Part shown: positions 9,222-32,247 of the stretch, piece by piece
Layout: each line of letters opens with the position of its first letter
Position numbering within the stretch: the first letter of the stretch is position 1
Notes under the pieces: model-generated
Seen by the model: only the letters and a program-made list of their open reading frames with translations
The model's database searches: none
What the model was told of the DNA's origin: nothing
Position numbers and translations under genes: made by a program
Origin: a virus
Strand: one strand, 5' to 3'
Length of the DNA: 64,000 nucleotides
Virus record (IMG/VR): IMGVR_UViG_3300045988_177018
Span: 49,928-113,927 of that record

Positions 9222-9242
9222 TATGTGACTAATTCCAGTATA
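9222..9242 (-). promoter_or_regulatory. Conserved promoter/leader motif copy (TATACTGGAATTaGTCACA, minus orientation)
   Basis: Match to the about 17-copy motif. About 20 bp upstream of the 9205 start. Confidence 0.5.
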
Positions 9243-9265
9243 GTGGTTTGCGTAAAATATGTCCA

Positions 9266-9285
9266 AATACTGGAATCGTTCACAC
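9266..9285 (+). promoter_or_regulatory. Conserved motif copy in opposite (plus) orientation, forming an inverted pair with 9222..9242
   Basis: aaatactggaatcgttcacac. It faces into the 3' end of the minus-strand gene 9280..9813. Confidence 0.35.
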
Positions 9286-9813
9286 TTCTCGGGGGCGGAT
9301 GCGCGTAAGGACGGAACGGCGGGAAGTCGTCACCTTCCTGCGATTGCCTTCGGAATCCGCCATGGTGAGCATGGGTACCTTCCGTTCGAACACGAGAGAC
9401 AGCGGCTTGCCTTCGTCCTTACCGGCTGCGAGTTCGTACATGTCGGGGTCGAAGTCTTCCAACGGTCTCAAATCGTCCAACGCTATCCAGTATTTCGCGG
9501 GTTCCATCGACCAAGGTTTAGGACATTGGTAGAAGCTTCCCTCGTCCCATGTCCGTGGATTGTAGGGGCTTCCGAAACCGGCGACTTCGCCTATGAGCAT
9601 GAGGTCTTCGTCGTGCGCGTACAGGATGACCTGCTCCACGTTTCGCATGACTCCGATGATGCCGCATTTCCATAGGATGTGGTCGTCGTGCTGTTCGCTG
9701 AATCGGAGGTATTCCTGCATTACGGTTCGCGGTTGGAAGTATACGCGGCCTCGTCGGGGTGCGTATCCGATTCTAATCATCAGGATTTCTTTTTCATGTG
9801 TTATGCCAGTCAT
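9280..9813 (-). CDS. Hypothetical protein
   Basis: 177-aa ORF. Preferred over the overlapping plus ORF 9259..9675, which is Arg/His/Gly-rich. Confidence 0.4.
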   Translation of the reverse strand: MTGITHEKEILMIRIGYAPRRGRVYFQPRTVMQEYLRFSEQHDDHILWKCGIIGVMRNVEQVILYAHDEDLMLIGEVAGFGSPYNPRTWDEGSFYQCPKPWSMEPAKYWIALDDLRPLEDFDPDMYELAAGKDEGKPLSLVFERKVPMLTMADSEGNRRKVTTSRRSVLTRIRPREV

Positions 9814-9900
9814 GACCTCATATTACCATATGTGGACAAACCCAATATAACGCGAGAGTGTTTAAAGGTAGGCGGGGAATCAACCCCAGCACCTTGGCAA

Positions 9901-10410
9901 CTATTTTCCGATGGGAGTCAAAGCCTTGCGATATTCGACGGACAACCGGTCGAAGGAACGCTTCAAAGCCTTGGCTTCCCGCACATCCCCATCCAAATCC
10001 GTATCGCAATGCAGCAGCTTATATCCCTCCGGCTTCTTGTCCTGCAAAGCGGACAAAGCGTCCAAATCATACGATTCGTCCAATTCGCTGAACTTGGAAG
10101 CAACCTGACCGTACAGGCGGAACGCTTTATTGTATGATTCCGTCATGCTGCCGACCTGCTGGATACAGGAGTTCTCCGCTTCTATACGTGCGCGTTTCGC
10201 CTTGCCTTGGGTATCCCACCAAAGGAATGTTCCGCAACAGCAGAGGGCGATGGATACGAGCAGCGACAATACGGTAGCGACTAACCGTCTCACGCGTTTT
10301 CTGACCCAGAGTTCGCCATCCCGCACTCCGGCGGCGATGATGCCGTAGAACGACTGTTCCTCGGTGGAGGCGGGGGCTGTACGGGTTTTCTTTTTCGAAT
10401 GTCTACCCAA
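9901..10410 (-). CDS. Hypothetical membrane-anchored protein
   Basis: 169 aa with a single TM (LVATVLSLLVSIALCCCGTFLWW) after a basic N-terminus. Confidence 0.45.
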   Translation of the reverse strand: MGRHSKKKTRTAPASTEEQSFYGIIAAGVRDGELWVRKRVRRLVATVLSLLVSIALCCCGTFLWWDTQGKAKRARIEAENSCIQQVGSMTESYNKAFRLYGQVASKFSELDESYDLDALSALQDKKPEGYKLLHCDTDLDGDVREAKALKRSFDRLSVEYRKALTPIGK

Positions 10411-10416
10411 TGCGGC

Positions 10417-10809
10417 TCAATCCTCGAAATCCGGGAACGACAAATCCAAGTTCGGCTTGGCTGCCGAGCAATAAGCCGGGGAACCTTCGCAGAGGGCATG
10501 GTTCAGGATTTCCGCGAACCTGTACACCTGCCTTTTCCGTTCCGCCTCACTGCCGTGCGAGCATTCGCCTAGGGGAGTGTTCTTGAATCCGCGAGCGTCC
10601 TTTTGCGCTTTGGCGAGCATGTTGCGCAATAGTCCGGCGGACAGAGGGACGGTTTCACCTGATTTCAGTTTTCCTGATTTCAGCAATTCGTCTATGGCGT
10701 ACCTGTTGTTGGACAAGTCCCAACAACAGGTACGCCAATATCCTTCATCCTCTGGATTGTCCTTCAATGTGAGCGTGACTTGCGTGAAGGTTTCAATGGT
10801 GTGCGACAT
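10417..10809 (-). CDS. Hypothetical protein
   Basis: 130-aa ORF. Confidence 0.45.
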   Translation of the reverse strand: MSHTIETFTQVTLTLKDNPEDEGYWRTCCWDLSNNRYAIDELLKSGKLKSGETVPLSAGLLRNMLAKAQKDARGFKNTPLGECSHGSEAERKRQVYRFAEILNHALCEGSPAYCSAAKPNLDLSFPDFED

Positions 10810-10818
10810 TTTTCCCTT

Positions 10819-11088
10819 TCATTTTTTCAGCCCGTAGTAGACGACGCCGTTTGATTCTTTCGTCCGGTCGAACAGTTCGTGTCCGCGTTGTGTGTTTTCG
10901 ATGCTTCTGATTACGACTTCCGGCGCGTCGAAAATGGTCATGGGTTCCTGTCCGGTGAGTTTCGCCCACTGGTTTTGGATTACCGTGAGCGTGACTCGGC
11001 TGTTGGAGTCGAGTTGGCGGCATTGCCGTTCGTGCTGATGTTTGCGCACATAGTCGGACGCGACATCGGCCAGTGTGGTTCTAGGCAT
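10819..11088 (-). CDS. Hypothetical protein
   Basis: 89-aa ORF. Motif copy upstream at 11108..11133. Confidence 0.4.
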   Translation of the reverse strand: MPRTTLADVASDYVRKHQHERQCRQLDSNSRVTLTVIQNQWAKLTGQEPMTIFDAPEVVIRSIENTQRGHELFDRTKESNGVVYYGLKK

Positions 11089-11107
11089 GTGTTTTCCTTG
11101 ATTTTAC

Positions 11108-11133
11108 GTGAATGTGGCTAATTCCAGTATAAC
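11108..11133 (-). promoter_or_regulatory. Conserved promoter/leader motif copy
   Basis: gtgaatgtggctaattccagtataac. Confidence 0.5.
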
Positions 11134-11155
11134 AAGGAGCGTGCTACGAATGTTA

Positions 11156-11551
11156 CTATTTTTGGGAATCCCGCCGCCAAGCGCGGAAATACTCCCAAGA
11201 CGGCATATCCGCTAGAATCGCGGACGCGACCATAATCCCTGTCAGGATGGGACGAACCGTCACGTCGTCAGGATTGGAAATGGGAGCGAGCCACAGAATC
11301 GCGGAGACTCCAACAGCGAACGCGACGCTTACTATAAGCATTATGAATGGCATGGTTTTCTCCACCGGCTGTTTCGGCTTGGATTTTTTCGCCCGCTGTT
11401 TTCTGATTTTCAGAATCTTCCTGCTTGGTTTGCCATGCCGTCCGTACATGGTGGTTTCTCTATTGTTGGCGTGATTGGAGGCTAAGCGGGTGATTGACTC
11501 GGGGTCGATGACGGTGGTGAGTTCTCCTGTGTTTTCTGGTTGTGTTGGCAA
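11156..11551 (-). CDS. Hypothetical membrane protein
   Basis: 131 aa with two hydrophobic helices. Degenerate motif copy at about 11586..11598 (cccagtataac). Confidence 0.45.
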   Translation of the reverse strand: MPTQPENTGELTTVIDPESITRLASNHANNRETTMYGRHGKPSRKILKIRKQRAKKSKPKQPVEKTMPFIMLIVSVAFAVGVSAILWLAPISNPDDVTVRPILTGIMVASAILADMPSWEYFRAWRRDSQK

Positions 11552-11636
11552 GACCGACCTCTAATCCATCTGATGGTGCGAATACTCCCAGTATAACAGA
11601 ACAGGGCTTGAGGGAAAACCCATAGCCCTGTTCCCG

Positions 11637-12692
11637 TCAAAGACCGTGCTTGGTCAGATACTTATTGGAGATAATTTTAAAGCAACGGTTGCCGCCAAGC
11701 TCGTTATACAGGTCGTCGCTCAACCGTTCACCCGCTTTCGCATGCCAGACGATTCCTTCATCCAACATGTCGCGGTTCGCGTTGCCGCGCAGACCGTCCA
11801 CTTTGGCAATCATGTCCATCACATCGCCGGTCGGCTTCCACTCGGCCTCGTCCAACAGTGGGACGGCATTGTCGAGCATGGCTTTCGGCCAATCCTCGCG
11901 GTCGAGTTTCGCATTGTCATGCCATACGGCGAACACGAATGGACGATAGGAGCCAAGCTTCAACCTGTTGCTGTTGACACTTGGGCCGCACAGCTCGAAC
12001 TGGCAGACCATGCCTTTCTCCAACGCGTCAACCAATCCGGTTTTCACCGCCACTTGCATGTTCGTGCAGTCCGACTTCAGCTCCCAATTGCGAGAGTAGA
12101 CGTGTACCGTATCATCCATGTCACGGTAGATTGTGGTGCTGGTACCGTCCACTTTCACGGTTGGCGTCCACGCAATCCGTTTGATTTCATCCCAATACGC
12201 GGTGAGATTCTGCACTCGCGTAGCATCCGACTTGGAGCATGGCGCATTGAACACGCCAACCATATCCCCGCCTTTCAAAGGCGGTAGTTCCTCGAATTTC
12301 CACACGTCCGCCTGTAAGGTGATATCAGTGCCGACCGGAGTATCCTCCGGCACGCCAATAGCAGAGAGCGGCATGACCAAACCCTGACTGTATACGCCTC
12401 GCAGTCTTGCGGTCTTCAACACGTGTCCGGTGATTTCGCGTTCTTCGCCGGTAATCGTGTTGGACACTGGCACGGTGCGCTGCCCACGTTTCTGCAATTC
12501 CGCATACCGTGGGTCGTCGGCGGGCAGCATGGAGTCGATTTCGTAATAGGCCACATGGTCGCCGGGTTTCAATCCCATGTCCTTGCCGACTACGACAATC
12601 CATCCTCCGATTTTCGCTTTCTCGATACGGTCTGCATCCTTGATTGGGTACACGCCTTCAACGGCTTGCACGCTTACCATTTTTCGAACCAT
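11637..12692 (-). CDS. ATP-dependent RNA ligase family protein (nucleotidyltransferase KxDG motif)
   Basis: 351 aa. OB-like N-terminus KDADRIEKAKIGGW..GDHVAYYEIDSMLP is typical of phage/bacterial RNA ligases. Motif I KVDGT. Confidence 0.55.
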   Translation of the reverse strand: MVRKMVSVQAVEGVYPIKDADRIEKAKIGGWIVVVGKDMGLKPGDHVAYYEIDSMLPADDPRYAELQKRGQRTVPVSNTITGEEREITGHVLKTARLRGVYSQGLVMPLSAIGVPEDTPVGTDITLQADVWKFEELPPLKGGDMVGVFNAPCSKSDATRVQNLTAYWDEIKRIAWTPTVKVDGTSTTIYRDMDDTVHVYSRNWELKSDCTNMQVAVKTGLVDALEKGMVCQFELCGPSVNSNRLKLGSYRPFVFAVWHDNAKLDREDWPKAMLDNAVPLLDEAEWKPTGDVMDMIAKVDGLRGNANRDMLDEGIVWHAKAGERLSDDLYNELGGNRCFKIISNKYLTKHGL

Positions 12693-12708
12693 GTGATTTA
12701 GTTCCTTT

Positions 12709-12903
12709 CTAACTGTTGCCGTTGGATGGTTGACACTCTTCCTCGCAGTCGAGTTCCTTGCGAACGATTTCCAAAGCCACGTCTAACGCTTCGTCCCAGC
12801 CGCTGCGCCAACCGAGGACAAACGCTTCCGCCGGGGAGACTTTGCCGATGTTCGATTGGAGAAGGGAATGTATGGCCCTCTCTTTCAGCTCTTCTTCATT
12901 CAA
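12709..12903 (-). CDS. Hypothetical small protein
   Basis: 64 aa, ATGA-coupled to the upstream gene. Confidence 0.35.
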   Translation of the reverse strand: MNEEELKERAIHSLLQSNIGKVSPAEAFVLGWRSGWDEALDVALEIVRKELDCEEECQPSNGNS

Positions 12904-13526
12904 ATTTCCTGTTCCTTTCCTTTATCTGCCAATAATGCCACGGCCAACCATGCGGGCAGTGGCGTATCATGCAATTGTCTTGCTTCCTTCCGGTTTTCAG
13001 CCACGTGAAGGAACGGTGTCTTGTCTTCTGCGAGCATGTCTCCCGCGATTTTGACGGTTTTTTTCGAAGTGGACAGCAGTTGTTCCGCTTTTTCATCGCC
13101 GCCATGCCACATGATTTGGAATCGGAGGGTGGCCCACAACCATGGGTTGTCCCACGAATCTTCCGGAATGCCGTTGGCTGCGAACAGGTGGAGCAGGTGT
13201 CGCACACGTCGGGTCAGGCTTGCTTTGCTGACGGAGTATCTGCCTTGTCTGGAACCGATTTTGAACGCTTCCATGCCGGTGTTGAACGCGTTTGGATTTG
13301 TATGCTGGAGTACGCTTCCGGACAGGATGGTGTCGTTCACGGTTTCGGCGCTGGTCAGATGCCATCCGTGGCAGATGGGGCAATGGTATGCGCGTTTCTC
13401 CGTGTGTTTTGGATTGCCTCGTCCTTTGATGACGGCCAATGCGAGTTGGGCTTCCTTTTGGTTGGGGTAACGCACTTTGTTTCGGTTGAGAGTGCATTTA
13501 CCTGCGGTCTTGTATAGGCTATGCAT
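12900..13526 (-). CDS. Hypothetical zinc-finger protein (YHCPICHGWHLTS motif)
   Basis: Start set at the internal Met. The ORF extension to 13598 (MLYWGRSHK) is simply the promoter motif read in frame. Confidence 0.45.
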   Translation of the reverse strand: MHSLYKTAGKCTLNRNKVRYPNQKEAQLALAVIKGRGNPKHTEKRAYHCPICHGWHLTSAETVNDTILSGSVLQHTNPNAFNTGMEAFKIGSRQGRYSVSKASLTRRVRHLLHLFAANGIPEDSWDNPWLWATLRFQIMWHGGDEKAEQLLSTSKKTVKIAGDMLAEDKTPFLHVAENRKEARQLHDTPLPAWLAVALLADKGKEQEI

Positions 13527-13572
13527 TGTTGTTGCTCCGAATCGGGATGGCGGTCTCTTTCCGACTGTTTTT

Positions 13573-13596
13573 TTATGTGAACGCCCCCAGTATAAC
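13573..13596 (-). promoter_or_regulatory. Conserved promoter/leader motif copy
   Basis: ttatgtgaacgcccccagtataac. Confidence 0.5.
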
Positions 13597-13604
13597 ACAG
13601 TTAG

Positions 13605-13946
13605 TTAAGAAGACAAACCAACCCCCTCGTAAGCCAGCATGTCAGCCAGCCCATCCTCACCCAATGCTCGCAGCCGGTTCGCCACCCCGTATCGTTGGTT
13701 CCAACAGCGGACGAGCGTATCGGCTTCAACACCGTATGCCGCCCATAAGGTCGGCAAAAGCGAGCAAGGCTGTTCGTGGACGATTCCATAGCGGACGCCG
13801 CGCCGGAAATCGCGGTCGAACACGAGATGCACAGCGCCGTCGCAGAACGGGCATGATGCAAGATTCACCATTTTTTGGGTGGGGATGCCCGGTATTTCAA
13901 TGCCGGGAGGAACCACCCTCTCCTTTCCTTTTAAGTCTTTTTTCAT
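13605..13946 (-). CDS. Lar-family restriction-alleviation-like zinc-ribbon protein
   Basis: CPFCDG...C and C-terminal WNQRYG resemble the Lar family signature (CPFCGG ... AWNRR). The start could be 13946 or 13871. Confidence 0.4.
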   Translation of the reverse strand: MKKDLKGKERVVPPGIEIPGIPTQKMVNLASCPFCDGAVHLVFDRDFRRGVRYGIVHEQPCSLLPTLWAAYGVEADTLVRCWNQRYGVANRLRALGEDGLADMLAYEGVGLSS

Positions 13947-15465
13947 TATACGCGCATAGTGATATAATCTAATCATGTCCCAGAAGGTCGTGATAGAACG
14001 TGTTGTGATACGGGGAGCCGCCCCGTATGTGGGCATGTGCGCGGCCTCGGACGGACGGCAAATCCCCTTGTATTCGACCAACCCCGACATAGTGATGCGT
14101 TGGCTGTGCGACGGGTGGCGTTGCCGATACAACCAGTTGCGTTCCCGTAGAGCCAAATGGGATAAAAACCTTGGCATAAGCATTCCGTTGGGCGGGAAGC
14201 CGGACATGCGCTCCGACCGTCAGGTAAGACTGGAATGCTCGTGGCTCGCGGCCATCCCCGCAATGGTGCTGCAATCCCCGAACAGGATAGAGAACACGGA
14301 CTGGTGGAGCGCGAACAAACGTCGCAAAACGTTGAAGAAGAAGCATAGGAACCCGGGCATGACGCCCGGGTTCAAAAAACGGCGTGACGACCTGTATTTC
14401 GTCTGCTGGCACAACAAGGGCGCGAACGCGAACTACCGGCAGTTGAACCGGCATCACGGCGAAGTCGTCATCACCGGACAGAACCCCAGCGCATATCGTC
14501 TGGACGGCCAGCCGTGCCGGTACAGCATCCACATCCGCGTCCGCGTCAGCCAACCCATCCGCGACTATACGAGCGTCGGAGTGAACTGGACGAAACGAAC
14601 GCTCGTGTTCGTCAACGACCCGTTGCCGATAAACCGAGAACGCACCGGCGCGATGGTCGGATTGGACAGGGGTTGCGTGCATACGCTCGCCACGTCCGAC
14701 AATCGTTTCATCGACCTCCCCAAAGACCGGTTGAACCATATCGACAGGGAGATACGCCGCCGTCAGAAGGCTCAGGCGCGACGAATCGCCATGTCCGGCG
14801 AAACCGTCAAACAATACCGTCGCCACGCGAGCCGCACCTACGAGCGCACCGGTCGGGAAATCAGCCGACTGTACGCGAAGGCGCACCGCATCATAGACGA
14901 CTGGCAGCACAAGACCACCAGCATGCTCGTCCGCGAATACGACGTCATCGTATTGGAAGACCTCAACCTGCAAGGCATGAGCCGCAAAGCCAAGGCGAAA
15001 CCCGACCCGGACAGGCCGGGCGCGTTCCTACCCAACGGACAGTCGGCGAAACGTGGACTCAACCGTAGCCTACGCGCCGCAAGCCTCGCCGGAATCGTCA
15101 GCAAACTCGAATACAAGACCCGACTGACCGGACGAAACCGTCTCATACTCGTCAACCCCGCGTACACGTCGCAGACATGCAGCAAGTGCGGGCATTGCGC
15201 CAAGGAGAACCGCAAAAGCCAAGCGGACTTCGAATGCGGGCAATGCCACGCGCGCATGAACGCCGACTTGAACGCGGCCAACAACATCCTCGAACGGGGA
15301 TTGAACCATCTCCTCGGCTTGGACGAAGCCGGGCACGCCGAAACGGAGCCAGACGCCCAACCCGCCTATCGCGGGAAGGACGCTTCCGCCATGACGTGCG
15401 AAACCTCAACACGATAACGTGTTGGAATCCCGGTGTTTCAACACCGGGAGGACGTCAATTCGCAT
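13947..15465 (+). mobile_element. IS200/IS605-family element, TnpB-only (IS1341-like); boundaries approximate
   Basis: Carries a TnpB-like gene. Right-end hairpin cccggtgtttcaacaccggg at about 15431..15450. No tnpA. Confidence 0.5.
14206..15417 (+). CDS. tnpB: TnpB-like RNA-guided endonuclease (IS605 OrfB family), intact RuvC I/II/III and zinc ribbon
   Basis: GLDRG, LEDLNLQGM, NADLNAANNI, CSKCGH..CGQCH. The ORF is open from 13975 (480 aa) behind a gatataat -10. The N-terminal half is atypical for TnpB. Confidence 0.6.
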   Translation: MRSDRQVRLECSWLAAIPAMVLQSPNRIENTDWWSANKRRKTLKKKHRNPGMTPGFKKRRDDLYFVCWHNKGANANYRQLNRHHGEVVITGQNPSAYRLDGQPCRYSIHIRVRVSQPIRDYTSVGVNWTKRTLVFVNDPLPINRERTGAMVGLDRGCVHTLATSDNRFIDLPKDRLNHIDREIRRRQKAQARRIAMSGETVKQYRRHASRTYERTGREISRLYAKAHRIIDDWQHKTTSMLVREYDVIVLEDLNLQGMSRKAKAKPDPDRPGAFLPNGQSAKRGLNRSLRAASLAGIVSKLEYKTRLTGRNRLILVNPAYTSQTCSKCGHCAKENRKSQADFECGQCHARMNADLNAANNILERGLNHLLGLDEAGHAETEPDAQPAYRGKDASAMTCETSTR

Positions 15466-16132
15466 TCTCCTTCAACAGTCGTTTCACCAACGCGGGCACC
15501 TGCGTCCAATCGTCGAACGCCAGCCCCAAGCCGGATTGTTCGGCGCGGTCGCACTGGGGCAGGTTGTAGGCGTGCCGTTTGACGAGCACACGCAACCCTT
15601 TGTCCATAAGCCAGTCGAGCGCATGCGGATTGTCCTCAATGGTCAGGTCGGCGTCCAGAAACGTCTTGTCCCAGATGTGGCAGAAGCGGATTCCGCTTCC
15701 ATCACGGCGGCAGGAGTCCCTTATGGTCCACTCGAACGTTTCAGGATACGTGTCGCGCCAAAGGTCGAGATTCCAGTTCGGGGTCGCGTCCAAACCGTAG
15801 GCGTGCAGCCACCGCAGACTGTCCGTCTCATCCCGCTCGCGACTGGTGGCGAACAGGACGGAATGTCGCCGCGCCATATCGTATGCCGCGTCCAACGCGC
15901 CCGCGTAGGGGCGTTCGCGCAGATACAGGCCGAGTTCCACGGCACGCTGGTGCAATGGGAAGAACGTGTCCTCGTCTTCGAACCAGCCGTCGCATGCGAA
16001 TGAATAGTCGGACGGGTCGGGCGCGTCCGCGTAACCGTCGTAGCCCATTTGGGTCAGACAATCCTTGAACGCGGTCGTATAGTCCGCGAACGTGTTGTCC
16101 AAGTCAATGACGATGAGGGGTCTTTCAGCCAT
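15455..16132 (-). CDS. HAD-superfamily hydrolase, 5'(3')-deoxyribonucleotidase-like (DxDxT)
   Basis: N-terminal IVIDLDNTFADY nucleophile motif. 225 aa. Confidence 0.5.
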   Translation of the reverse strand: MAERPLIVIDLDNTFADYTTAFKDCLTQMGYDGYADAPDPSDYSFACDGWFEDEDTFFPLHQRAVELGLYLRERPYAGALDAAYDMARRHSVLFATSRERDETDSLRWLHAYGLDATPNWNLDLWRDTYPETFEWTIRDSCRRDGSGIRFCHIWDKTFLDADLTIEDNPHALDWLMDKGLRVLVKRHAYNLPQCDRAEQSGLGLAFDDWTQVPALVKRLLKENAN

Positions 16133-19808: not shown

Positions 19809-19833
19809 GGTGTTCTCCTTTTTCAACTGGGCT

Positions 19834-22281: not shown

Positions 22282-22305
22282 CGTTAGTCTCCTTTGTAAG
22301 GAAAA

Positions 22306-22329
22306 ATGTGTGGACGCTTCTACTATAAC
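22306..22329 (-). promoter_or_regulatory. Variant copy of the conserved promoter/leader motif
   Basis: atgtgtggacgcttctactataac. Confidence 0.4.
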
Positions 22330-22331
22330 AC

Positions 22332-23662: not shown

Positions 23663-23698
23663 ACCCCATATTATACGCATTATGCGTATAATTGTCAA
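23663..23698 (-). promoter_or_regulatory. hicAB promoter (TTGACA-17-TATAAT) with a perfect 9-1-9 palindromic operator in the spacer; leaderless start
   Basis: Bottom-strand read: TTGACA attatacgcataatgcg TATAAT atggggt ATG. Palindrome tatacgcat-t-atgcgtata at 23672..23690. Confidence 0.6.
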
Positions 23699-25358: not shown

Positions 25359-25721
25359 TTATAGTTTTCTTCGCGCCTTGTCCAAGTCTTCGACAATCGC
25401 GTCATACAGTCCGTCAACGTCCAACGATTCCAGCTTGTGCGACGGCAAATCCACGGGAGTGTATTCCCCGTCGTCGAAAACCCAATGCGCGGACGAAACC
25501 GTGTATACCCCTCCACTCCAACGGTAGGAATGTTTGCCGTTATGTTGCGAGTCTGCCACAAGGTAGTATTCGAACATCTTGCCCATGTATGGGCATTGGA
25601 ATGCGACTTCGATTCCATCCCCGAAGAGGGCGTGGGTGGCGTGCGCTCCTGTCACGTATGGGATTTCGGAGAGCTTGTCAATGAGTTTCCGGTAGGTGTC
25701 TTCGTTGATTTTCGAGTACAT
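25359..25721 (-). CDS. Hypothetical protein
   Basis: 120-aa ORF. Motif copy upstream. Confidence 0.45.
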   Translation of the reverse strand: MYSKINEDTYRKLIDKLSEIPYVTGAHATHALFGDGIEVAFQCPYMGKMFEYYLVADSQHNGKHSYRWSGGVYTVSSAHWVFDDGEYTPVDLPSHKLESLDVDGLYDAIVEDLDKARRKL

Positions 25722-25755: not shown

Positions 25756-25778
25756 TTTGTGTGGACAGTTCCAGTATA
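25756..25778 (-). promoter_or_regulatory. Conserved promoter/leader motif copy
   Basis: ttgtgtggacagttccagtata. Confidence 0.5.
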
Positions 25779-25913
25779 TCATACAAATGACAAAACTAAA
25801 AACAGCACACACCCTACTTGACCCCAGCCGAGAATTCTTGCTGGAAGATACTTTGCGACGGGGCCAGTCGAAGGACGGCTCCCTTTGACTGACCCGTGAG
25901 GTGCTGGATGGTT

Positions 25914-26747
25914 TCAGCCGTGCAACGCGGTGATGATTTCGTCAGCGGCCTTACGGACATGCTCGGCAGTGGAGCGTACAAGCTTGGGGTCAGCATCGCT
26001 CCACCCCGCCACATAGCGGATGGAATACTCGCCGGTGTCCATTCCCATGTATCTAGCCACCACATAGGCGACGCTTTCCGCCTCGGTCTCGTAGATGCCG
26101 CGATGCCGACCGTATTCACCTTCCGGCAACCCCTGATGGAGGAGCATGTGGGCCGTTTCGTGCAGGATGGTCTTGGCGTCCTGCCTCGGACTGTTCTTCG
26201 CGTTGAGCATGATTCGTCTGCTTCCATCCATCGTGGTGTAGCCTTTGACGTCCCTCCCCATCGACTCATGGCCCACCCGCCAATGTTTGGATTCGAGCCA
26301 AGCGGTCATACGTCCGACGAGGCCGAGCGCGTCTGCGCCTTCAAGCTCGGACGGCTTCATCTGCTCGATGGGGTCGGTCTGGGGCACGTCGAACACCGTC
26401 AAGATGGGATACCAGACTTTTTGGATAGGGTCGCCGTTCTCGTCTAGCTGTGGGTTGCCGTCTTCGTCCTTGACGGTTCTAGTGCTGAAGCCGAAGATTT
26501 TCATACCGTGTTCGCCTTTGCGCACGACGCGCCCGCGCGTCTGCCATTGGCGGAATCCGGCGACCAGCGACGAGTTGCCGTTCGATTGAATGAGCATTAG
26601 CAGGATGTTGTTCCAGCTGTATTGGTGGAAACGTCCCATGAAATCGAGGTAGCGCTGCCAAGTGCCGGAGTCCCGTAGTTCCTTCACGCCGGTTTCGATG
26701 TCCTTGCGCAGTTCTTCGATTCGTTCCCTGTGTTGCTTGTCTGCCAT
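25914..26747 (-). CDS. ardC: ArdC-like antirestriction protein (ssDNA-binding N-domain + HExxH metalloprotease-like C-domain)
   Basis: HQYSWNNILLMLIQ (ArdC-N/DUF1738 signature) and ILHETAHMLLH. Confidence 0.7.
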   Translation of the reverse strand: MADKQHRERIEELRKDIETGVKELRDSGTWQRYLDFMGRFHQYSWNNILLMLIQSNGNSSLVAGFRQWQTRGRVVRKGEHGMKIFGFSTRTVKDEDGNPQLDENGDPIQKVWYPILTVFDVPQTDPIEQMKPSELEGADALGLVGRMTAWLESKHWRVGHESMGRDVKGYTTMDGSRRIMLNAKNSPRQDAKTILHETAHMLLHQGLPEGEYGRHRGIYETEAESVAYVVARYMGMDTGEYSIRYVAGWSDADPKLVRSTAEHVRKAADEIITALHG

Positions 26748-26789: not shown

Positions 26790-27047
26790 TCAGCAGCAGT
26801 ATTCGTTGACTGTGTTGACCAGTTCGCTCATGCTCATGCCGTACACGTCGCTGTGGCGGTGGAAGATGCTTTTGGTGAAGAGCCTTTTTTGCATGATGTC
26901 GCGGGCTTCGGCGCTTTGTGCGAGTTTCACGCTTTCAGTGAATGCGCCTGTGGGGTTGCCGTTGATTTGTTTGGCGTATTCGACTGCTTGGGCTTTGGGC
27001 ATTTTCTTGACGTTCATTGCGCCGCCGATGTAGTGGATTGCGTACAT
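26790..27047 (-). CDS. Hypothetical protein
   Basis: Start at MYAIHYIGG. The ORF is open to 27164. Confidence 0.4.
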   Translation of the reverse strand: MYAIHYIGGAMNVKKMPKAQAVEYAKQINGNPTGAFTESVKLAQSAEARDIMQKRLFTKSIFHRHSDVYGMSMSELVNTVNEYCC

Positions 27048-27073
27048 GTTGTGTGCTCCTTGGTTTTTCGACC

Positions 27074-27099
27074 TTGTGTGTGTGAACAATTCCAGTATA
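27074..27099 (-). promoter_or_regulatory. Conserved promoter/leader motif copy
   Basis: ttgtgtgtgtgaacaattccagtata. Confidence 0.55.
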
Positions 27100-27233
27100 G
27101 CATATTTGAGAGAAAGCGCAAAAGCGCCAAAAACAAAAAGCCGCGCAAACGCAAAAGCATCCACACGACTCGATATTTTTCACCACTATACGGAGGGTTG
27201 TGCGGTTGCCTCCGCCGCAGTGGGCGATGCCGG

Positions 27234-27530
27234 TTAGTCGAAGTCCGACGGTTCACCATCGAGAAAGTTATAAAACTGGTCGAAGGCATATTGCACGGTA
27301 TCCTCATAACGGCTTGGCTTCGGCTGTGCGTTCTTTTCCCGCTCTTCCTGCTCTATCAACTGGTCTATTTGGCTTTGCTCATTGCGGTGTTGCCACGCGA
27401 GAGGCTCGTTGCCTTGGGCTAGGTTCTCATACACCGTATATTCATGCCCGCGATAGCTATAGACAAGATAGACCATATGGGCGTCGTATCCGTGCCCGTG
27501 GTATTTTCTAACGAACGTCGCTTTTCGCAT
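27234..27530 (-). CDS. Hypothetical protein
   Basis: 98-aa ORF. Confidence 0.4.
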   Translation of the reverse strand: MRKATFVRKYHGHGYDAHMVYLVYSYRGHEYTVYENLAQGNEPLAWQHRNEQSQIDQLIEQEEREKNAQPKPSRYEDTVQYAFDQFYNFLDGEPSDFD

Positions 27531-27621: not shown

Positions 27622-27945
27622 TTAAGCTTCTACCAGCTCCCACCGGTCTCCAGCCTCTTCGTCGAATTCGCCTAATCGGAAACCATATGCGGCAAGCCTC
27701 CTGTCCGCCGTGGCCTCCCATTCGTCCTCGTCATCGCCGTATACATCTTCGACCCTCTCGGCATCGGAGTAGGAGTCGGCGCGTCCCAAGTTGATAAGCC
27801 ATTGGGAGGAGTCAGCCCCCATCCAGATGCCATTGCCGGTGATGGCATCGACGATAAGAAGCGTGTCGAATGCATCGCTCCCGTAGACGGCTATCGGCTG
27901 AACAGTGACGGTCTCGTTGGTGTTGATGTCAAGTGCGGTAAACAT
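27622..27945 (-). CDS. Hypothetical acidic protein
   Basis: Start at MFTALDIN. The ORF is open to 28104. Confidence 0.4.
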   Translation of the reverse strand: MFTALDINTNETVTVQPIAVYGSDAFDTLLIVDAITGNGIWMGADSSQWLINLGRADSYSDAERVEDVYGDDEDEWEATADRRLAAYGFRLGEFDEEAGDRWELVEA

Positions 27946-27970
27946 TTCGGCTTTGTCTTTTCTTGTGTTT

Positions 27971-27992
27971 TTGTGTGAACAATTCCAGTATA
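27971..27992 (-). promoter_or_regulatory. Conserved promoter/leader motif copy
   Basis: ttgtgtgaacaattccagtata. Confidence 0.55.
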
Positions 27993-28036
27993 CCACATGA
28001 ATGGAGACATCCCCAAATAGCACACACTCCACTTGG

Positions 28037-28963
28037 TTAAATCTCGCGCTCGGCACGCTCCCAAATCTTCCGGCGAATCTCACTGTCCTCGGAGAACATC
28101 GCACCCAACTTCAATACTTGACGAACCGCTTTGCGATAATCTTCCATACGCACACGAAGAGCCCATCGAGCTTCGCCCTTGAACGCCCGATTGATGAACG
28201 AATCCGGCATGTCTCTCATATTCTGAACCAGCTCGTAACGCTCCAGTCTGTCAGCTTCCTCCCACGCTTTCATGATGATTTCACGGGTTGCCCACCGAGG
28301 TTTAACGGCCAGCACACTGGCCACGTCTTGCGGTTTGAGTCGTTTGAGCACTTCGTCTACTTCGCTGTCATCGGACAAGAGGGCCGCTTGGGCGCGAATT
28401 CCGGTGTAGGGGCTTTCCAGCCAGTGGGACAGGCACTCTTTATTAACGTCATGGTTACGGATGACGTTGCTGACCACGCGCTCATTCTCCTCCGTGAAGA
28501 AGTTGCAGACGTCGGCTTTTTTCGCCGCGATATAACGAACCTCCCAATCCTTGTCGTGGGACAGGGCGTTCGACGTTTCCTTGTCAAGCTTGTCGTACTT
28601 GTCGAGCAGTTCCACGGCTTTCCTGCGAATCTCCGCACTCCTGTCCCGCAGGGCCACTTGGGAAAGTGCGTTGACCGGCAGGTTGTGAATATCGTATTCG
28701 CCCCAGTCGAAGTAGTAGTGTCGGAGCGTGAGCGGGAGTTCGGAGAGTTTGCCGGAGTCGAAATGCTGTCTGATGTCGGCTAGTTCCTTTTCGCCTTTTT
28801 GGGTGAGCTTCCACGTGTGTTTTTCTTCGTTGCGTTGCACCAGTCCGGCGTTGGCGAGTTTGGTGAGATTCCGGTCATCGTACGCCGCTTGGCGTTCTGG
28901 TTTGTGTTCGAAGCGGAGGAAGTCGTAGATTGCGGTTTCGTTCCAGTTGATGTTGTCGCTCAT
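28037..28963 (-). CDS. HEAT/PBS-lyase-like repeat protein
   Basis: Start at MSDNINW. Repeated ..EVR..AA../..EIRRKAVELL helical units. Confidence 0.45.
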   Translation of the reverse strand: MSDNINWNETAIYDFLRFEHKPERQAAYDDRNLTKLANAGLVQRNEEKHTWKLTQKGEKELADIRQHFDSGKLSELPLTLRHYYFDWGEYDIHNLPVNALSQVALRDRSAEIRRKAVELLDKYDKLDKETSNALSHDKDWEVRYIAAKKADVCNFFTEENERVVSNVIRNHDVNKECLSHWLESPYTGIRAQAALLSDDSEVDEVLKRLKPQDVASVLAVKPRWATREIIMKAWEEADRLERYELVQNMRDMPDSFINRAFKGEARWALRVRMEDYRKAVRQVLKLGAMFSEDSEIRRKIWERAEREI

Positions 28964-28986
28964 TTTCGTTCCTTTTGATTTCCTGT

Positions 28987-29008
28987 TTGTGTGAACAATT
29001 CCAGCATA
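28987..29008 (-). promoter_or_regulatory. Conserved promoter/leader motif copy
   Basis: ttgtgtgaacaattccagcata. Confidence 0.55.
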
Positions 29009-29027
29009 GCATAGAATAGAGAAACGC

Positions 29028-29462
29028 TCAACCACGAACCCAATCGACAAAACGTCCGAAACCATCAAACGGAACCAACGAATACAACAACCAGCCAACA
29101 AGCGCCAGCAATGCAAGCACCGCAATCGCATACACCAGCGTGCCCACGAACAAGCCAGCCAAAAACACGTTCATCTGCCGTTCGCGCAGCTCCAGCAGCT
29201 CATACCATTCGCTCTCGCACCGGTCGAATGCGTCAGCATCCATGCCGGTGCCTCCATGGGCTTGAAGCCAATCGCGTACGGTCGGCATGGGAGGCAACGG
29301 GTCGGATATGCAAGCGTGCGGCATGAGGGCGGTTTTAAGCCCTTGCCAAACGCCGTTGAAAAAGAACGAGGGAAAACGTGCGGCAGTCACCGTGCTGGAC
29401 ATCACTTTTCCACCTGTTCTCTTCGTCCGACAATCTTCTTGCCGCCCACGCTCCTCAACCAT
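29028..29462 (-). CDS. Hypothetical membrane protein
   Basis: C-terminal TM (LFVGTLVYAIAVLALLALVGWLLY). Confidence 0.4.
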   Translation of the reverse strand: MVEERGRQEDCRTKRTGGKVMSSTVTAARFPSFFFNGVWQGLKTALMPHACISDPLPPMPTVRDWLQAHGGTGMDADAFDRCESEWYELLELRERQMNVFLAGLFVGTLVYAIAVLALLALVGWLLYSLVPFDGFGRFVDWVRG

Positions 29463-30133
29463 GCCAAGCCATGACCATAGGAGACCATACCGGCTTCAAC
29501 GGTTGAATTCCGCTGGAACATGTAATGCACTTCCGCGAGTCCATTGCCCCCGCTTGTTTGCAGAACACGAATCCCATAATCCTTTTCGACTGCCTTGACC
29601 GCCATATCCCGTTCGAGTTCGTCGAACCAGCCGTAGAGCGGGAGCATGGCGAATGCGGACAATGCGCCTACGGCGATGAACCGCCAACATGTTTTCGCTC
29701 CCACCAACAATGCGATTGCCGCCACGAGAATTCCAATGACGGCGATTCCCGTCAACAGTTGACGCCATTTGCCGTTGCAGTCGTATTCGACAGGCGCGTA
29801 CGGGTTGGTGGGGACTGGTGTTGGAGGTGCGGTTTTGTTGGTTTTTCGTGTGGCGGGCTTGTAGGCTTTCGGAATGGGTTTCGGAGCGGTTTTGTTTACC
29901 GTTGGAACGGGTTTCTTGCTCGTCTTGCTGGCGATTTCGTCGGTGTTTTCAATGGACTTGTCCGCTGTTTTCGGTTTGAATTTCAATGGTGGCGCCGGTG
30001 GGTTCAGCATTTTTCGTCCCGTTTTCTTCACGATTTCTTGCAGTTCGATGGTGGTGGACGAGTCGGGTTCATCCATTGGTTTCTGACCTAACATCATGAG
30101 GTCGTTTTCCAGTGAGATATTCCGTTCCTTCAT
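29402..30133 (-). CDS. Hypothetical Pro/Lys-rich membrane protein
   Basis: Start at MKERNISL. Low-complexity KP/TP linker, then two TM helices. Confidence 0.4.
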   Translation of the reverse strand: MKERNISLENDLMMLGQKPMDEPDSSTTIELQEIVKKTGRKMLNPPAPPLKFKPKTADKSIENTDEIASKTSKKPVPTVNKTAPKPIPKAYKPATRKTNKTAPPTPVPTNPYAPVEYDCNGKWRQLLTGIAVIGILVAAIALLVGAKTCWRFIAVGALSAFAMLPLYGWFDELERDMAVKAVEKDYGIRVLQTSGGNGLAEVHYMFQRNSTVEAGMVSYGHGLAWLRSVGGKKIVGRREQVEK

Positions 30134-30216: not shown

Positions 30217-30525
30217 TCAGAGGATTCGGGTTCCCTTGCGGGTGACAAGCATGATTCTGTTTTCGTGACGGCTCTCGAAAACGTCCCAGTTGCCGCTCAG
30301 AACTGCCAAGCATGCGTCGCCTTTGATGAGGTTCCAACGTTCGTCGCAGTTGGATACGACGTGTTTCCAGTTGGTTGGGTTGGGCTTGCTGTGGGAGGTT
30401 TCCACGATAGCTTCATTCATGGGCTTGTCCGCGTAGGTGTGGTCGTAGGTGTTGTCTCCGGCGACCACGCTGATGGTGCCGTTGTCGTGGAAGATTGGCT
30501 GGTAGTAGGTTTTGGTGTCGTTCAT
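30217..30525 (-). CDS. Hypothetical protein
   Basis: Start at MNDTKTYY. Motif copy upstream. Confidence 0.45.
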   Translation of the reverse strand: MNDTKTYYQPIFHDNGTISVVAGDNTYDHTYADKPMNEAIVETSHSKPNPTNWKHVVSNCDERWNLIKGDACLAVLSGNWDVFESRHENRIMLVTRKGTRIL

Positions 30526-30553
30526 TCGTTCTCCTTGGTTGGCTCCGCCTGTT

Positions 30554-30575
30554 TTATGTGGACATTTCCAGTATA
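30554..30575 (-). promoter_or_regulatory. Conserved promoter/leader motif copy
   Basis: ttatgtggacatttccagtata. Confidence 0.5.
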
Positions 30576-30620
30576 GCATACGTAAAGTTCTGACTCCACA
30601 ACAAGCACGGAACATACTGG

Positions 30621-30770
30621 CTACGAGTCTTCGCCCCCATCTTCTCCGAGCGCCTGTTCAACCAACAATCTGACCGCATCGTTCCACGAGACTTCATGTC
30701 GCTCGGCATACTGCATGGTCAGCCGGTACAGTTCGGCGGGCAACATGACCACACGGTTCATGTTAGGCAT
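30621..30770 (-). CDS. Small ribbon-helix-helix-like DNA-binding protein (candidate regulator)
   Basis: MPNMNRVVMLPAELYRLTMQYAERHEVSWNDAVRLL: beta-strand then two helices, as in CopG/Arc. Confidence 0.35.
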   Translation of the reverse strand: MPNMNRVVMLPAELYRLTMQYAERHEVSWNDAVRLLVEQALGEDGGEDS

Positions 30771-30774
30771 CACG

Positions 30775-30954
30775 TCAACTCCAGAACAGGTGGGCGAGCG
30801 AGTCAGCGTCGATATACCGGCGTCGTCCGATTTTGTAGGTGCGTATGCGACCGGCATTCAGCAGGTCGTATATGTGCTGGCGTGAGCAGGAGAGGTAGGC
30901 CATCGTGTCGGCGATAGTGAGGATGGCTGGCAGTTCCTTGGCTTTGGTTCTCAT
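30775..30954 (-). CDS. Excisionase/AlpA-like helix-turn-helix DNA-binding protein
   Basis: LTIADTMAYLSCSRQHIYDLLNAGRIRTYKIGRRRYI. Confidence 0.5.
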   Translation of the reverse strand: MRTKAKELPAILTIADTMAYLSCSRQHIYDLLNAGRIRTYKIGRRRYIDADSLAHLFWS

Positions 30955-30971
30955 CGTCGTGCTTTCCTTCG

Positions 30972-31361
30972 TTAATACCGGTATTCGCAACCGGAATCCA
31001 CAAACTCGTGCTCGCCATCGCTCCACAGCACGGACACTATGGTCGAAGGGTCGTTCAGGTCGATGAAAAACGCGGCAAGCTCGTCCACTGACAAGCGGGA
31101 GAACTCCTCGCCCACAGCTTTATAGAATTCGTCCCAAGCGGCTTGGTCGGCGTCCGATTCCACGAGCGTGGAGAACCGTTCCGCCAGTTGCGTGGATGGG
31201 AGTGTGGCATGGGAGAAGCTTTCGTCCGTAATGTCGAGCCAAGCGTTCAAGCACCTGTCGGCCAGTTCGCCTACCGGAAAAGTCAGCATTCTCGTGGTAG
31301 TGCCCGTCCACTTGGTTTTCTTCAGAAAACTGACTTCGACGGCATTGGTCTTGTGTTCCAT
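30972..31361 (-). CDS. Hypothetical protein
   Basis: 129-aa ORF. Confidence 0.45.
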   Translation of the reverse strand: MEHKTNAVEVSFLKKTKWTGTTTRMLTFPVGELADRCLNAWLDITDESFSHATLPSTQLAERFSTLVESDADQAAWDEFYKAVGEEFSRLSVDELAAFFIDLNDPSTIVSVLWSDGEHEFVDSGCEYRY

Positions 31362-31392
31362 GGTCTGCGCTCCTATTCATGGCTTTCTGTTT

Positions 31393-31414
31393 TTGTGTGA
31401 ACAATTCCAGTATA
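31393..31414 (-). promoter_or_regulatory. Conserved promoter/leader motif copy with TTGACG-16-TATACT
   Basis: ttgtgtgaacaattccagtata. -35 TTGACG (bottom strand) lies 16 bp from TATACT. Confidence 0.55.
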
Positions 31415-31475
31415 TATGAATGTACGCGAACGTCAAACCAGCTTCCCACCAAGCGCTTTTTAAAGCATTATGGCG

Positions 31476-31691
31476 TCAAAGCGAACCATGTCCGCGTCTT
31501 CTCTCCGAGGCGAACTGATGGGCGACTTCATCCAGCTCTTTGGACTCCAACCCGTCCAGCACGGCGAGTGCGAACCTCACACGCTCACGGTCATCGACCG
31601 GCAACCAGATGTCGTCGGCTCCCGCGACGACGTGAATGCCCATGCCGTCGTTGTCGCTGATGTAGTCGAATCCGTTGAACTTGACGCTCAT
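31476..31691 (-). CDS. Hypothetical protein
   Basis: Start at MSVKFNGFDY. Confidence 0.35.
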   Translation of the reverse strand: MSVKFNGFDYISDNDGMGIHVVAGADDIWLPVDDRERVRFALAVLDGLESKELDEVAHQFASERRRGHGSL

Positions 31692-31707
31692 GCTTCCTCC
31701 TTTTTTC

Positions 31708-32196
31708 TCAGTCTTCCCCGTTGCCTGAACGATGCGACGTAATACGGTTCCAATGTTTTGAGTACACGTCCCATACGTTTTCGGAATCAACGTTCAGCAT
31801 TTCCTCGAAAGCGGCTTTGCCGACGTCGCTGAGACGGCTGATGTTGCGCAGAATATCCGCCACCTTGTCCGCTTCGTACAGTTTGTTCTGGCTGTCCTCC
31901 AATTCTTGAGATTGGGTGCTGGTGAGGTGTTGGAGATAGTTTTCGAGCAGTTCCCAGCCTTTGTCCGAGGATGAGATGTAGGCGGGTTTTGTGAGACGCC
32001 AGTCTTCGAGTATGTCTTCCCAAGGGTCGGTTTTGACGTCGTAGATTCCGGCGTCTTCTTCGTGGGGGAGGTTTTTGATTTGTTTCTGGTTGCCGTCTTC
32101 GTCCAAGTAGTCGATGGTGAGGTATTCGATTGTGTCGTTTCGGTCGAAGAGGTTGTGTGATGTGGTGATTTTGAGGCTGGTGATGGTCTTAATCAT
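31708..32196 (-). CDS. Hypothetical acidic protein
   Basis: 162-aa ORF. Confidence 0.45.
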   Translation of the reverse strand: MIKTITSLKITTSHNLFDRNDTIEYLTIDYLDEDGNQKQIKNLPHEEDAGIYDVKTDPWEDILEDWRLTKPAYISSSDKGWELLENYLQHLTSTQSQELEDSQNKLYEADKVADILRNISRLSDVGKAAFEEMLNVDSENVWDVYSKHWNRITSHRSGNGED

Positions 32197-32225
32197 TTTG
32201 GTTCCCTTTGTTTTCCAAGCATGTT

Positions 32226-32247
32226 TTGTGTGAACAATTCCAGCATA
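32226..32247 (-). promoter_or_regulatory. Conserved promoter/leader motif copy with TTGATG-17-TATGCT
   Basis: ttgtgtgaacaattccagcata. Confidence 0.55.

Follow-up and report, generated by a model that had tools for sequence, protein, structure and literature searches.

A 26-bp promoter motif is repeated along a 64,000 bp window of DNA filed as viral (IMG/VR record IMGVR_UViG_3300045988_177018, positions 49,928 to 113,927; 'the window' is this whole stretch, and coordinates refer to it), which is part of a ~190 kb conjugative megaplasmid of the Bifidobacterium catenulatum group related to the B. breve megaplasmid pMP7017. The window holds 17 strong and about five weak or degenerate copies of TGnTATACT-GGnnnn-GTYCACAYAAA, all of them intergenic, in which an extended -10 promoter half is followed by a box, GTYCACAYAAA, that is 8-11 bp long and begins exactly six bases past the -10 hexamer. 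The motif is the B. catenulatum-group variant of the one that defines a presumed regulon in pMP7017. On balance, we lean towards reading the copies as one reused promoter module, in which the box at the predicted start site (+1) is a common control site for plasmid-wide co-regulation.

A first-pass annotation of the window had described a repeat of ~22 bp ahead of start codons, and this was confirmed by a scan with a position weight matrix, by comparison with shuffled sequence and by the intergenic placement of the copies. Copies were recovered by fuzzy 24-mer search and an iterated weight matrix, and the matrix scan of the window gave 17 copies of at least 30 bits, separated by a clean gap from the next match at 10.9 bits, with essentially no copies in shuffled sequence under the same scan. 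The 14-mer GGAATTGTTCACAC, which had been called invariant, is found exactly in only five copies, all on the minus strand at 27.0-32.3 kb, and that description was overstated; allowing up to two mismatches raises the count to nine, versus 0.64 expected from shuffles, and none of 100 shuffles reached nine. In a home-made gene map in which 87% of the window is coding, all strong copies fall within the non-coding 13% (P ~1e-15) instead of occurring at equal density inside coding regions, and of the 42 intergenic gaps that are 60 nt or longer, 15 contain a strong copy. In the strong copies the -10 ends 30-62 nt ahead of the start codon, and a start codon lies 24-57 nt downstream of every copy except an inverted one at 9263 and a relic at 13771. 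Recent duplication was ruled out as the source of the similarity, as extended flanks are common to one pair only (31392/32225, with ~55 nt of upstream homology in common).

Between 9.2 and 32.3 kb, 12 strong and two weak minus-strand copies reproduce the at least 13 counted previously, and the four plus-strand copies in the annotation were recovered at 9263, 38573, 61276 and 61745. Two further minus-strand copies lie beyond the range covered before (34153 and 38480), and weaker ones are at 9827, 22305 and 55459. The copies and the units that they precede are as follows.

9220-9245 (-): motif copy, CAC TATACT GGAATT AGTCACATAAG, heading the type IV secretion system (T4SS) operon; the orthologous pMP7017 copy is at 83814.
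T4SS operon under the 9220 copy: 8678-9205, 8359-8676, leucine-rich-repeat-variant (LRV)/HEAT genes 7064-8287 and 5865-7046, VirB4-like gene 2837-5497, 2070-2840 and CHAP/glucosaminidase hydrolase gene 130-1986.
9263-9288 (+): degenerate inverted copy, CCA AATACT GGAATC GTTCACACTTC, back-to-back with 9220-9245.
9827-9852 (-): weak copy, TATATT GGGTTT GTCCACATATG, upstream of 9280-9813.
11109-11134 (-): motif copy upstream of 10819-11088, 10417-10809 and 9901-10410.
11573-11598 (-): motif copy upstream of 11156-11551.
13572-13597 (-): motif copy upstream of 12900-13526, 12709-12903 and the RNA ligase gene (Pfam) 11637-12692.
13771-13796 (-): box lacking a usable -10, CGCTAT GGAATC GTCCACGAACA, adjoining the TnpB-like open reading frame (ORF) 13975-15417; probably a decayed relic.
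19833-19858 (-): motif copy heading eight genes, 19122-19808 down to 15455-16132.
22305-22330 (-): weak copy, TATAGT AGAAGC GTCCACACATT, upstream of the 3'-5' exonuclease homologue 21604-22281; the orthologous pMP7017 copy is at 81976.
25756-25781 (-): motif copy upstream of 25359-25721 and the ATP-grasp-like gene 24072-25280.
27077-27102 (-): motif copy upstream of 26790-27047 and the ArdC-N/M78 peptidase (anti-restriction-like) gene 25914-26747.
27970-27995 (-): motif copy upstream of 27622-27945 and 27234-27530.
28986-29011 (-): motif copy with -10 TATGCT, upstream of 28037-28963.
30553-30578 (-): motif copy upstream of 30217-30525, 29402-30133 and 29028-29402.
31392-31417 (-): motif copy with -35 TTGACG, upstream of 30972-31361, the HTH_17 gene 30775-30954 and a 49-aa (amino acid) ORF, 30621-30770.
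32225-32250 (-): motif copy with -10 TATGCT and -35 TTGATG, upstream of 31708-32196 and 31476-31691.
34153-34178 (-): motif copy, TATAGT GGGTTC GCCCACAAAAA, upstream of the SPFH/Band-7 gene 32758-34137.
38480-38505 (-): motif copy, minus arm of a divergent pair, TAAGCT GGACGC GCCCACATACA.
Operon under the 38480 copy: 38221-38445, 37659-38216, 35914-37677, 35526-35894 and DnaB gene 34189-35529.
38573-38598 (+): motif copy, plus arm of the divergent pair, upstream of 38645-38821 (small membrane protein), 38894-39274 and a long run of plus-strand genes.
55459-55484 (+): weak copy, CACTAT GGTTTC GTCCACACCGA, upstream of parA 55508-56170 and its partner 56199-56687.
61276-61301 (+): motif copy upstream of 61332-61703.
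61745-61770 (+): motif copy upstream of the ORF 61785-62126.

The degenerate copy at 9263 lacks the TGn, the T at -12 (the first T of the -10) and a downstream plus-strand gene; relatives include pairs in this back-to-back layout that are intact.

The aligned copies read TGn TATACT GG(A/G)nnn GTYCACAYAAA, with constant positions at G(-6), G/A(-5) and GTYCACA (+1 to +7). Conservation was tallied over ~225 unique copies pooled from the window, pMP7017 and IMG/VR relatives, the position being tallied having been ignored when copies were selected. In the upstream half, TG is found at -15/-14 in ~80%, A at -11 in 100%, T at -7 in 99% and G at -6 in 97%. Within the box, the figures are G at +1 in 96%, T at +2 in 99%, C at +4 in 98%, A at +5 in 97%, C at +6 in 100% and A at +7 in 99%, with only C or T at +3, C or T with 6% A at +8, and A in 83-94% at +9 to +11. 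Positions +1 to +8 are thus conserved as strictly as the -10, deviations within +1 to +7 are nearly all transitions, and beyond +11 the sequence is not conserved in the plasmid type of the window. The annotation was correct in placing the strongest conservation downstream of the -10.

The upstream half is, by its sequence, a textbook sigma-A extended -10 promoter, with TGn at -15 to -13, TAnnnT, A at -11 and T at -7, a discriminator starting with G, a pyrimidine at -1 and a purine at +1, and the first G of GTYCACA would be the expected transcription start. Polymerase contacts leave the conservation from +2 to +11 unexplained. At position -8, C is found in 84% and A in 1 of 237 copies, making the hexamer TATACT and not TATAAT, and this bias suggests a constraint beyond recognition by the polymerase. 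The -35 region holds little information, and a generic -35/-10 scan catches the 31392 copy only. The TTGAYG -35 that the annotation had assigned to several copies is clear at just 31392 and 32225, which are duplicates of each other, most copies relying on the TGn of the extended -10. That the copies are promoters with an extra conserved element just past the -10 is supported, the homologous motif in pMP7017 overlapping promoters mapped by RNA-seq. Host promoters do not in general need the box: the hicA promoter in the window, a perfect TTGACA-17-TATAAT, has none. This box-free promoter (23698-23670) belongs to a HicA/HicB toxin-antitoxin pair (23052-23698) located within the otherwise motif-driven island.

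The relationship to pMP7017 was evident from the proteins as well as the motif. The VirB4-like ATPase (2837-5497) shares 63-67% identity with its counterparts in pMP7017 and in five megaplasmids of B. longum, and identity to pMP7017 is 67% for the VirB4-like protein, 54% for DnaB and 57% for ParA. When all window ORFs were compared with pMP7017 using tblastn, long synteny with pMP7017 34.8-89 kb was found, with 0.1-9.8 kb of the window corresponding to 83-89 kb, 34-38 kb to 58-60 kb and 39-62 kb to 56-35 kb; the cassette island stands in place of a pMP7017 stretch with CRISPR-Cas and other cargo. Exact window proteins are encoded on contigs of 175-194 kb from B. catenulatum and B. pseudocatenulatum. 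The gene content (CHAP/glucosaminidase hydrolase, AAA_10 ATPase, DnaB, ParA, RepA_C, RNA ligase, ArdC-N with M78 peptidase, and HicAB) fits a conjugative megaplasmid of the Gram-positive type, and no capsid or terminase genes were detected in the window. The two LRV/HEAT proteins in the T4SS operon (5865-8287) adjoin each other and are each ~400 aa.

A DNA-level search of PLSDB matched only the IS200/IS605 element at ~20.0-21.7 kb, which is 94% identical to copies in B. longum megaplasmids, and the island had no near match among the annotated plasmids. This element (TnpA and TnpB, 19970-21597) sits between the 19833 promoter and the exonuclease cassette. In a close relative (L005), a tnpB gene is inserted between the homologues of 9280-9813 and 8678-9205.

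Transcription of pMP7017 has been mapped by RNA-seq, and at six genes with high expression a 34-bp motif was found to overlap the -10 (Dineen et al. 2024; PMC10832533), so that transcription from the homologous promoters is an observation there. The published consensus is AWAYATGY TATACT GAATATGTCCACATAAAAWA, and 13 further copies no more than 60 bp from start codons bring the number in pMP7017 to 19, predicted to drive 56 genes or ~24% of the coding capacity (PMC10832533). The motif was proposed to be a transcription-factor site with no regulator named, occurs in pMP7017 homologues and is absent from bifidobacterial chromosomes, and its regulon is enriched for defence and replication functions (PMC10832533). 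Megaplasmids of this kind were present in ~10% of the gut metagenome samples examined, mostly from infants and mothers (PMC10832533). In the later literature that was searched, no regulator of the motif is named.

In our own scan, pMP7017 contained 24 copies with up to seven mismatches and ~30 boxes. Several of these lie ahead of genes orthologous to those of the window (the T4SS operon, the exonuclease, the divergent pair beside the DnaB region and the two genes at 61-62 kb). Copies are also found ahead of ssb and the tRNA/tmRNA region, with a spread of 28-186 kb. The divergent pair is at 56047/56117 in pMP7017, and the parA promoter there also has a weak copy, TACACT GAATGC AGTCACATA. About 33 nt upstream of that weak motif-type promoter is a perfect 12-bp palindrome, TGTGAATTCACA (pMP7017 41894-41905), which consists of two inverted TTCACA half-boxes and contains GAATTC. 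The window consensus has the same length and register as that of pMP7017, and keeps all positions that are invariant in pMP7017.

A strict 26-nt pattern, TGNTATACTGNNNNNGTYCACAYAAA, gave six chance-level singletons in unrelated metagenome-assembled genomes among 185,579 species-representative genomes, a search that includes the -10 and does not cover isolated boxes. In IMG/VR the same pattern hit more than 114 stretches, spread over ~60 contigs (43-217 kb) of the pMP7017-type family. At least 60 contigs of this megaplasmid family are filed in IMG/VR as viral genomes (UViGs; loci L012-L134). In this material, 345 of 378 box cores (91%) have a -10-like hexamer at the fixed spacing. Variants specific to the plasmid type occur at -5 (G vs A), -3 to -1, +3 and +8, and variation of this kind at positions to which the polymerase should be indifferent fits either a plasmid-linked partner or shared descent. 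Two of the IMG/VR relatives (L075 and L097) also carry a repeat with AATACGGCAGTCTTCCAATC, present ~30 times per locus, which is probably a CRISPR array of a type other than those of pMP7017.

The motif copies define many transcription units on the same strand, as the first-pass annotation had it, but the arrangement is not one promoter per one- or two-gene cassette, as one motif is followed by between one and at least eight genes. The annotation had further proposed that the island is a plasmid leading region, expressed in a burst on entry into the recipient and then shut off by a ribbon-helix-helix (RHH) and helix-turn-helix (HTH) pair encoded at 30.6-30.95 kb. The content of the same-strand cassettes, with genes for an ArdC-like anti-restriction protein, RNA ligase and exonuclease among them, would suit this proposal, as would the pMP7017 copy before ssb, the enrichment of defence and replication functions in the regulon there, and the genuine HTH_17 DNA-binding domain encoded at 30775-30954 within a motif-driven unit. 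The proposal fits poorly, because the motif also heads the T4SS operon (9220), the DnaB-ending operon (38480), the SPFH gene (34153) and parA (55459), and is dispersed over all of pMP7017. The copies are not confined to an oriT-adjacent region, as leading-region promoters are, and nothing recognisable as an oriT or relaxase gene was found. Neither member of the proposed regulator pair has a homologue in pMP7017 although the same box is there, and the RHH assignment is without database support. A leading-region burst is therefore considered very unlikely. The anti-restriction-type protein under the 27077 copy (25914-26747) has an ArdC N-terminal domain and an M78 (IrrE-like) peptidase domain.

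Predicted RNA leaders of 24-57 nt, folded with RNA parameters from +1 to 21 nt into the coding sequence, showed no structure beyond that of shuffles (mean z 0.08). In early promoters of the Frpo type, known from leading regions, it is the single-stranded DNA (ssDNA) that forms a hairpin mimicking a promoter; the element of the window reads as an ordinary duplex -10. A structured RNA leader or known RNA family was also rejected, as the leaders had no Rfam match and contained no tRNA.

Under the interpretation favoured here, one promoter module would be reused ~20 times on a Bifidobacterium conjugative megaplasmid, joining a host sigma-A extended -10 half, largely independent of a -35, to the +1 box at fixed spacing. 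The units served are the anti-restriction-like and accessory cassettes, the T4SS operon, the DnaB-ending operon, the SPFH gene and parA, and a single factor acting in trans would decide, for all of these promoters at once, whether RNA polymerase is held or released. The box is taken as the common control site because of its place across the start site, with constant spacing to the -10. A site read as DNA is supported by the boxes in a set of 21-bp repeats (described below) that precede no gene, and by the type-specific bases at -5 and -3 to -1. The motif, its positions and its conservation across the family are observed directly; the regulation and its sign, and the factor, are what we infer. 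pMP7017 is known to repress at least two of its promoters, other than those of the motif, in trans (PMC8313286), and this too speaks for a DNA site with a plasmid-linked partner.

Several observations weigh against a dedicated regulator. The box is constant over lineages in which proteins are 35-65% identical, which is unusual for a plasmid transcription factor and its operator; it is asymmetric, present once per promoter, and almost never found apart from a -10. Any repression is not tight, because six motif promoters of pMP7017 are highly expressed in plasmid-bearing cells. The +1 position on the window plasmid is a placement made from sequence. No regulator was found, as none of the HTH_17 protein, the 49-aa ORF product, the RepA-like protein, the ParA partner and an XRE regulator of pMP7017 could be tied to the box.

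The same constancy of the box across lineages and host species, and its coupling to the -10 at fixed spacing (345/378), would be explained if no dedicated regulator existed and the box were instead the initial transcribed sequence or mRNA 5' end (GUYCACAYAAA), read by the host machinery with an effect on promoter escape, 5'-end stability or translation. The module would then be a strong, portable, -35-independent unit, and the motif was first found at six highly expressed pMP7017 genes. At +1 to +7 the deviations are nearly all transitions, and either C or U is accepted at +3 and +8, a tolerance that would come with wobble pairing or with recognition of pyrimidines in RNA. A promoter-less triple box, ATCCACA ATCCACA ACAACT GTCCACATAAAA, is conserved at pMP7017 60354-60383 and in six IMG/VR loci; it is located within an operon, ~20 nt before the ribosome-binding site (RBS) of the gene that follows the dnaB and phrog_5931-like genes, and its retention upstream of an RBS in pMP7017 and relatives would also suit an RNA role. 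Such a role is harder to reconcile with leaders that show neither structure beyond chance nor an Rfam match, with the loss of conservation past +11 in the plasmid type of the window, with boxes in three 21-bp repeats that no gene follows, and with the type-specific variants at -5 and -3 to -1, which it leaves unexplained. This explanation is a serious rival, though held to be less probable than a common control site.

A more elaborate form of it, in which the box is a 5' tag, GUYCACAYAAA, on about a quarter of the plasmid transcripts, read during or after initiation by a conserved host or plasmid partner and also marking the boundaries at which cassettes are swapped, is regarded as improbable. 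It draws on the invariance of the box, its transition- and pyrimidine-limited variation, its coupling to the start site, the triple box, and homology breakpoints at motif edges, none of which is decisive. We know of no precedent for such a shared 5' tag in bacteria, which counts against any reading of the box in RNA. One possible partner for a tag is an anti-box, GUGUGGAC, of which the 21-bp repeats next to the rep gene hold three copies; around these repeats, no promoter-like or terminator-like site was found from which a transcript carrying the anti-box could arise.

For the favoured reading, in which a trans-acting factor reads the box, several proteins were considered. The annotation had named two candidates by position. 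Of these, 30775-30954 does encode an HTH_17/excisionase-type domain; for 30621-30770, protein families and PDB offered nothing to back an RHH fold. Even with an E cut-off of 10, pMP7017 yielded no homologue of either, although ~28 promoters there carry the box, and the pair (30621-30954, minus strand) lies in an accessory cassette present in only some relatives; both were rejected as family-wide regulators. An XRE regulator of pMP7017 is encoded in a conserved module, together with a DUF2815/Enc34-type ssDNA-binding gene and a PD-(D/E)XK nuclease gene, that is kept in diverged plasmids. The neighbouring promoter has a good box and the XRE gene's own promoter has the most degenerate one, and no link could be demonstrated. 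LexA/Cheo boxes, CRP half-sites and MmeI-type methylation sites, which resemble the box by eye, misfit in spacing or key bases. Control by CRISPR was also checked, and no spacer of the two type I-E arrays of pMP7017 matches the 34-bp motif. Two of these spacers match pMP7017 itself, at 81718-81750 (33/33) and 4383-4411 (28/29); the arrays are at 67.7-68.3 kb and 72.55-73.5 kb, and the PLSDB table lists no cas3.

Further candidates are encoded in the replication and partition region of the window, where box-like repeats are also found.

58031-58094 (-): three perfect 21-bp tandem repeats, TTTGGTGGGAAAAGTCCACAC, beside an AT-rich stretch, each holding GGAAAAGTCCACAC.
56891-57880 (+): RepA_C-family (PF04796) protein, 37% identical to pMP7017 RepA, adjoining the 21-bp repeats.
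56199-56687 (+): ParA partner, in which the N-terminal 27 aa and a C-terminal strand-helix-helix region are conserved and the linker varies.

The sequence GGAAAAGTCCACAC has every conserved position of the box without a -10. The repeats lie ~150 bp downstream of the RepA_C gene, have the AT-rich stretch and 2.8 copies of CAAAAGGTTA beside them (57960-58030 and 58136-58163), and the array is identical in nine IMG/VR relatives; the region looks like a putative replication origin (iterons) or centromere. It was considered whether the protein that binds these repeats, either RepA_C or an RHH-like ParA partner, also binds the promoters, as inc18 omega or IncP KorB would, and so couples replication or partition to expression. 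In a box-only scan the repeats rank directly behind the promoter copies, though a single repeat scores 11.9-14.3 bits, below the shuffle maximum of 18.9, and the link between repeats and promoter motif is only suggestive. The parA promoters of both plasmid types carry weak boxes. Replication of pMP7017 does not require RepA, a highly conserved protein with cooperative DNA binding (PMC8313286). The RepA_C protein of the window is a weak candidate for a box binder. The iterons of pMP7017 RepB have the critical bases GGnCnAnnR, and its RepA repeats are RGYGTCARWATTCTA (PMC8313286); neither fits the box. The repeats adjacent to rep differ by RepA lineage (GTCCACAC in the window, RGYGTCARWATTCTA in pMP7017 and GCGTCCTCAAATGTC in the relative L060) while the promoter box is the same; in the third of these lineages, with AAAAAGCGTCCTCAAATGTC repeats, the promoters keep GTYCACAY. 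The site is thus shared with the 21-bp repeats in the lineage of the window and not in those of pMP7017 or L060. The link to Rep is rated weak because Rep specificity drifts while the box does not, and RepA and RepB were rejected as box binders.

The C-terminus of the ParA partner may be compatible with an RHH fold, and its layout of N-terminal tail, linker and strand-helix-helix is like that of type Ib centromere-binding proteins. An omega- or ParG-like role in binding the box is speculative, as the AlphaFold model has a pLDDT of 54 and the protein has no family or PDB matches. Overall, a shared iteron or centromere binder is an improbable explanation of the promoter box. The ParA partner is 61% identical to that in L126-L134, while the neighbouring Rep is 95% identical; the divergence is confined to the proline/glutamine-rich linker, both terminal domains being identical.

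The motif copies also coincide with the joints of a mosaic. The window is composed of blocks that are 75-99% identical to many different IMG/VR contigs, and 9 of the 37 distinct intergenic ends of homology blocks lie within 3 nt of a motif edge, versus 1.2 expected (p 2e-6), with both edges used. With a tolerance of +-10 nt the count is only 9 versus 3.9 over other intergenic DNA (p 0.013), and the enrichment is partly a by-product of aligning a conserved motif in unrelated flanks. Cassettes are nonetheless delimited at the motif, which fits the cassette picture and leaves room for a role in cassette exchange. Were the module also a shared boundary for exchange by homologous recombination on a short identical sequence, this would account for the mosaic island and help to keep the copies alike, and the plasmid family does have a module of phage-type ssDNA-binding protein and PD-(D/E)XK nuclease. 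With just one pair in the window (31392/32225) sharing longer homology, such an additional role is thought unlikely.

One 26-bp module thus appears to organise a large share of the plasmid genes, including those for transfer, partition, replication-helper and anti-restriction functions. It would be the most direct route to the master control of the plasmid, a source of compact, -35-independent promoters for Bifidobacterium engineering, and a sequence signature by which fragments of the megaplasmid family can be spotted in metagenomes.

The upstream half resembles known sigma-70/sigma-A extended -10 promoters in its TG at -15/-14, TAnnnT, G at -6/-5 and weak or absent -35, and differs in the added conservation from +2 to +11 and the near-exclusion of A at -8. 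A repeated promoter element before successive small same-strand genes of a conjugative plasmid, including anti-restriction genes, has reportedly been described by Delver and Belogurov in 1997 as the CUP repeats of the IncN plasmids pKM101/R46, which are said to be controlled by ArdK. The CUP repeats are confined to a leading region that has been mapped, and their repressor is known, whereas the motif of the window is plasmid-wide.

Global plasmid regulons, in which operators for one regulator lie in many promoters, are known for KorA/KorB of IncP-1 plasmids and for omega of inc18 plasmids (WATCACW heptads). The motif is similar in that one short site is reused across replication, partition, transfer and accessory promoters, parA among them, and the box core TCAC(A) resembles the omega heptad. 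The sites of those regulators are palindromes or arrays of at least two heptads, are bound by an autoregulated plasmid protein and are not locked to the -10 at single-base spacing, whereas the box is asymmetric and single at each promoter, and no binder of it was found.

The stoperators of mycobacteriophage L5 and other cluster A phages, reportedly described by Brown et al. in 1997, are likewise asymmetric (~13 bp), intergenic, present in many copies, oriented with transcription and carried by an actinobacterial mobile element. They are mostly located away from promoters, where they stop elongation, whereas 91% of the boxes are at a -10, and no L5-type repressor was seen.

The pMP7017 motif shares with that of the window TGY TATACT, six bases and GTCCACAYAAA, the location before start codons in many copies, some of the orthologous genes served and the absence from chromosomes. 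It differs in its consensus (GAATAT-GTCCACAT, against GGAATT-GTTCACAC in the window), in an RBS-proximal leader that is not conserved in the window, and in the host group, here B. catenulatum/pseudocatenulatum. Because Dineen et al. (2024) described the homologous motif, the finding in the window is a rediscovery in a diverged sister lineage. It adds modestly to that work a second diverged lineage with other hosts and the demonstration that +1 to +8 are as strict as the -10, together with the observations that the regulators suggested by position are unlikely and that the motif marks mosaic boundaries.

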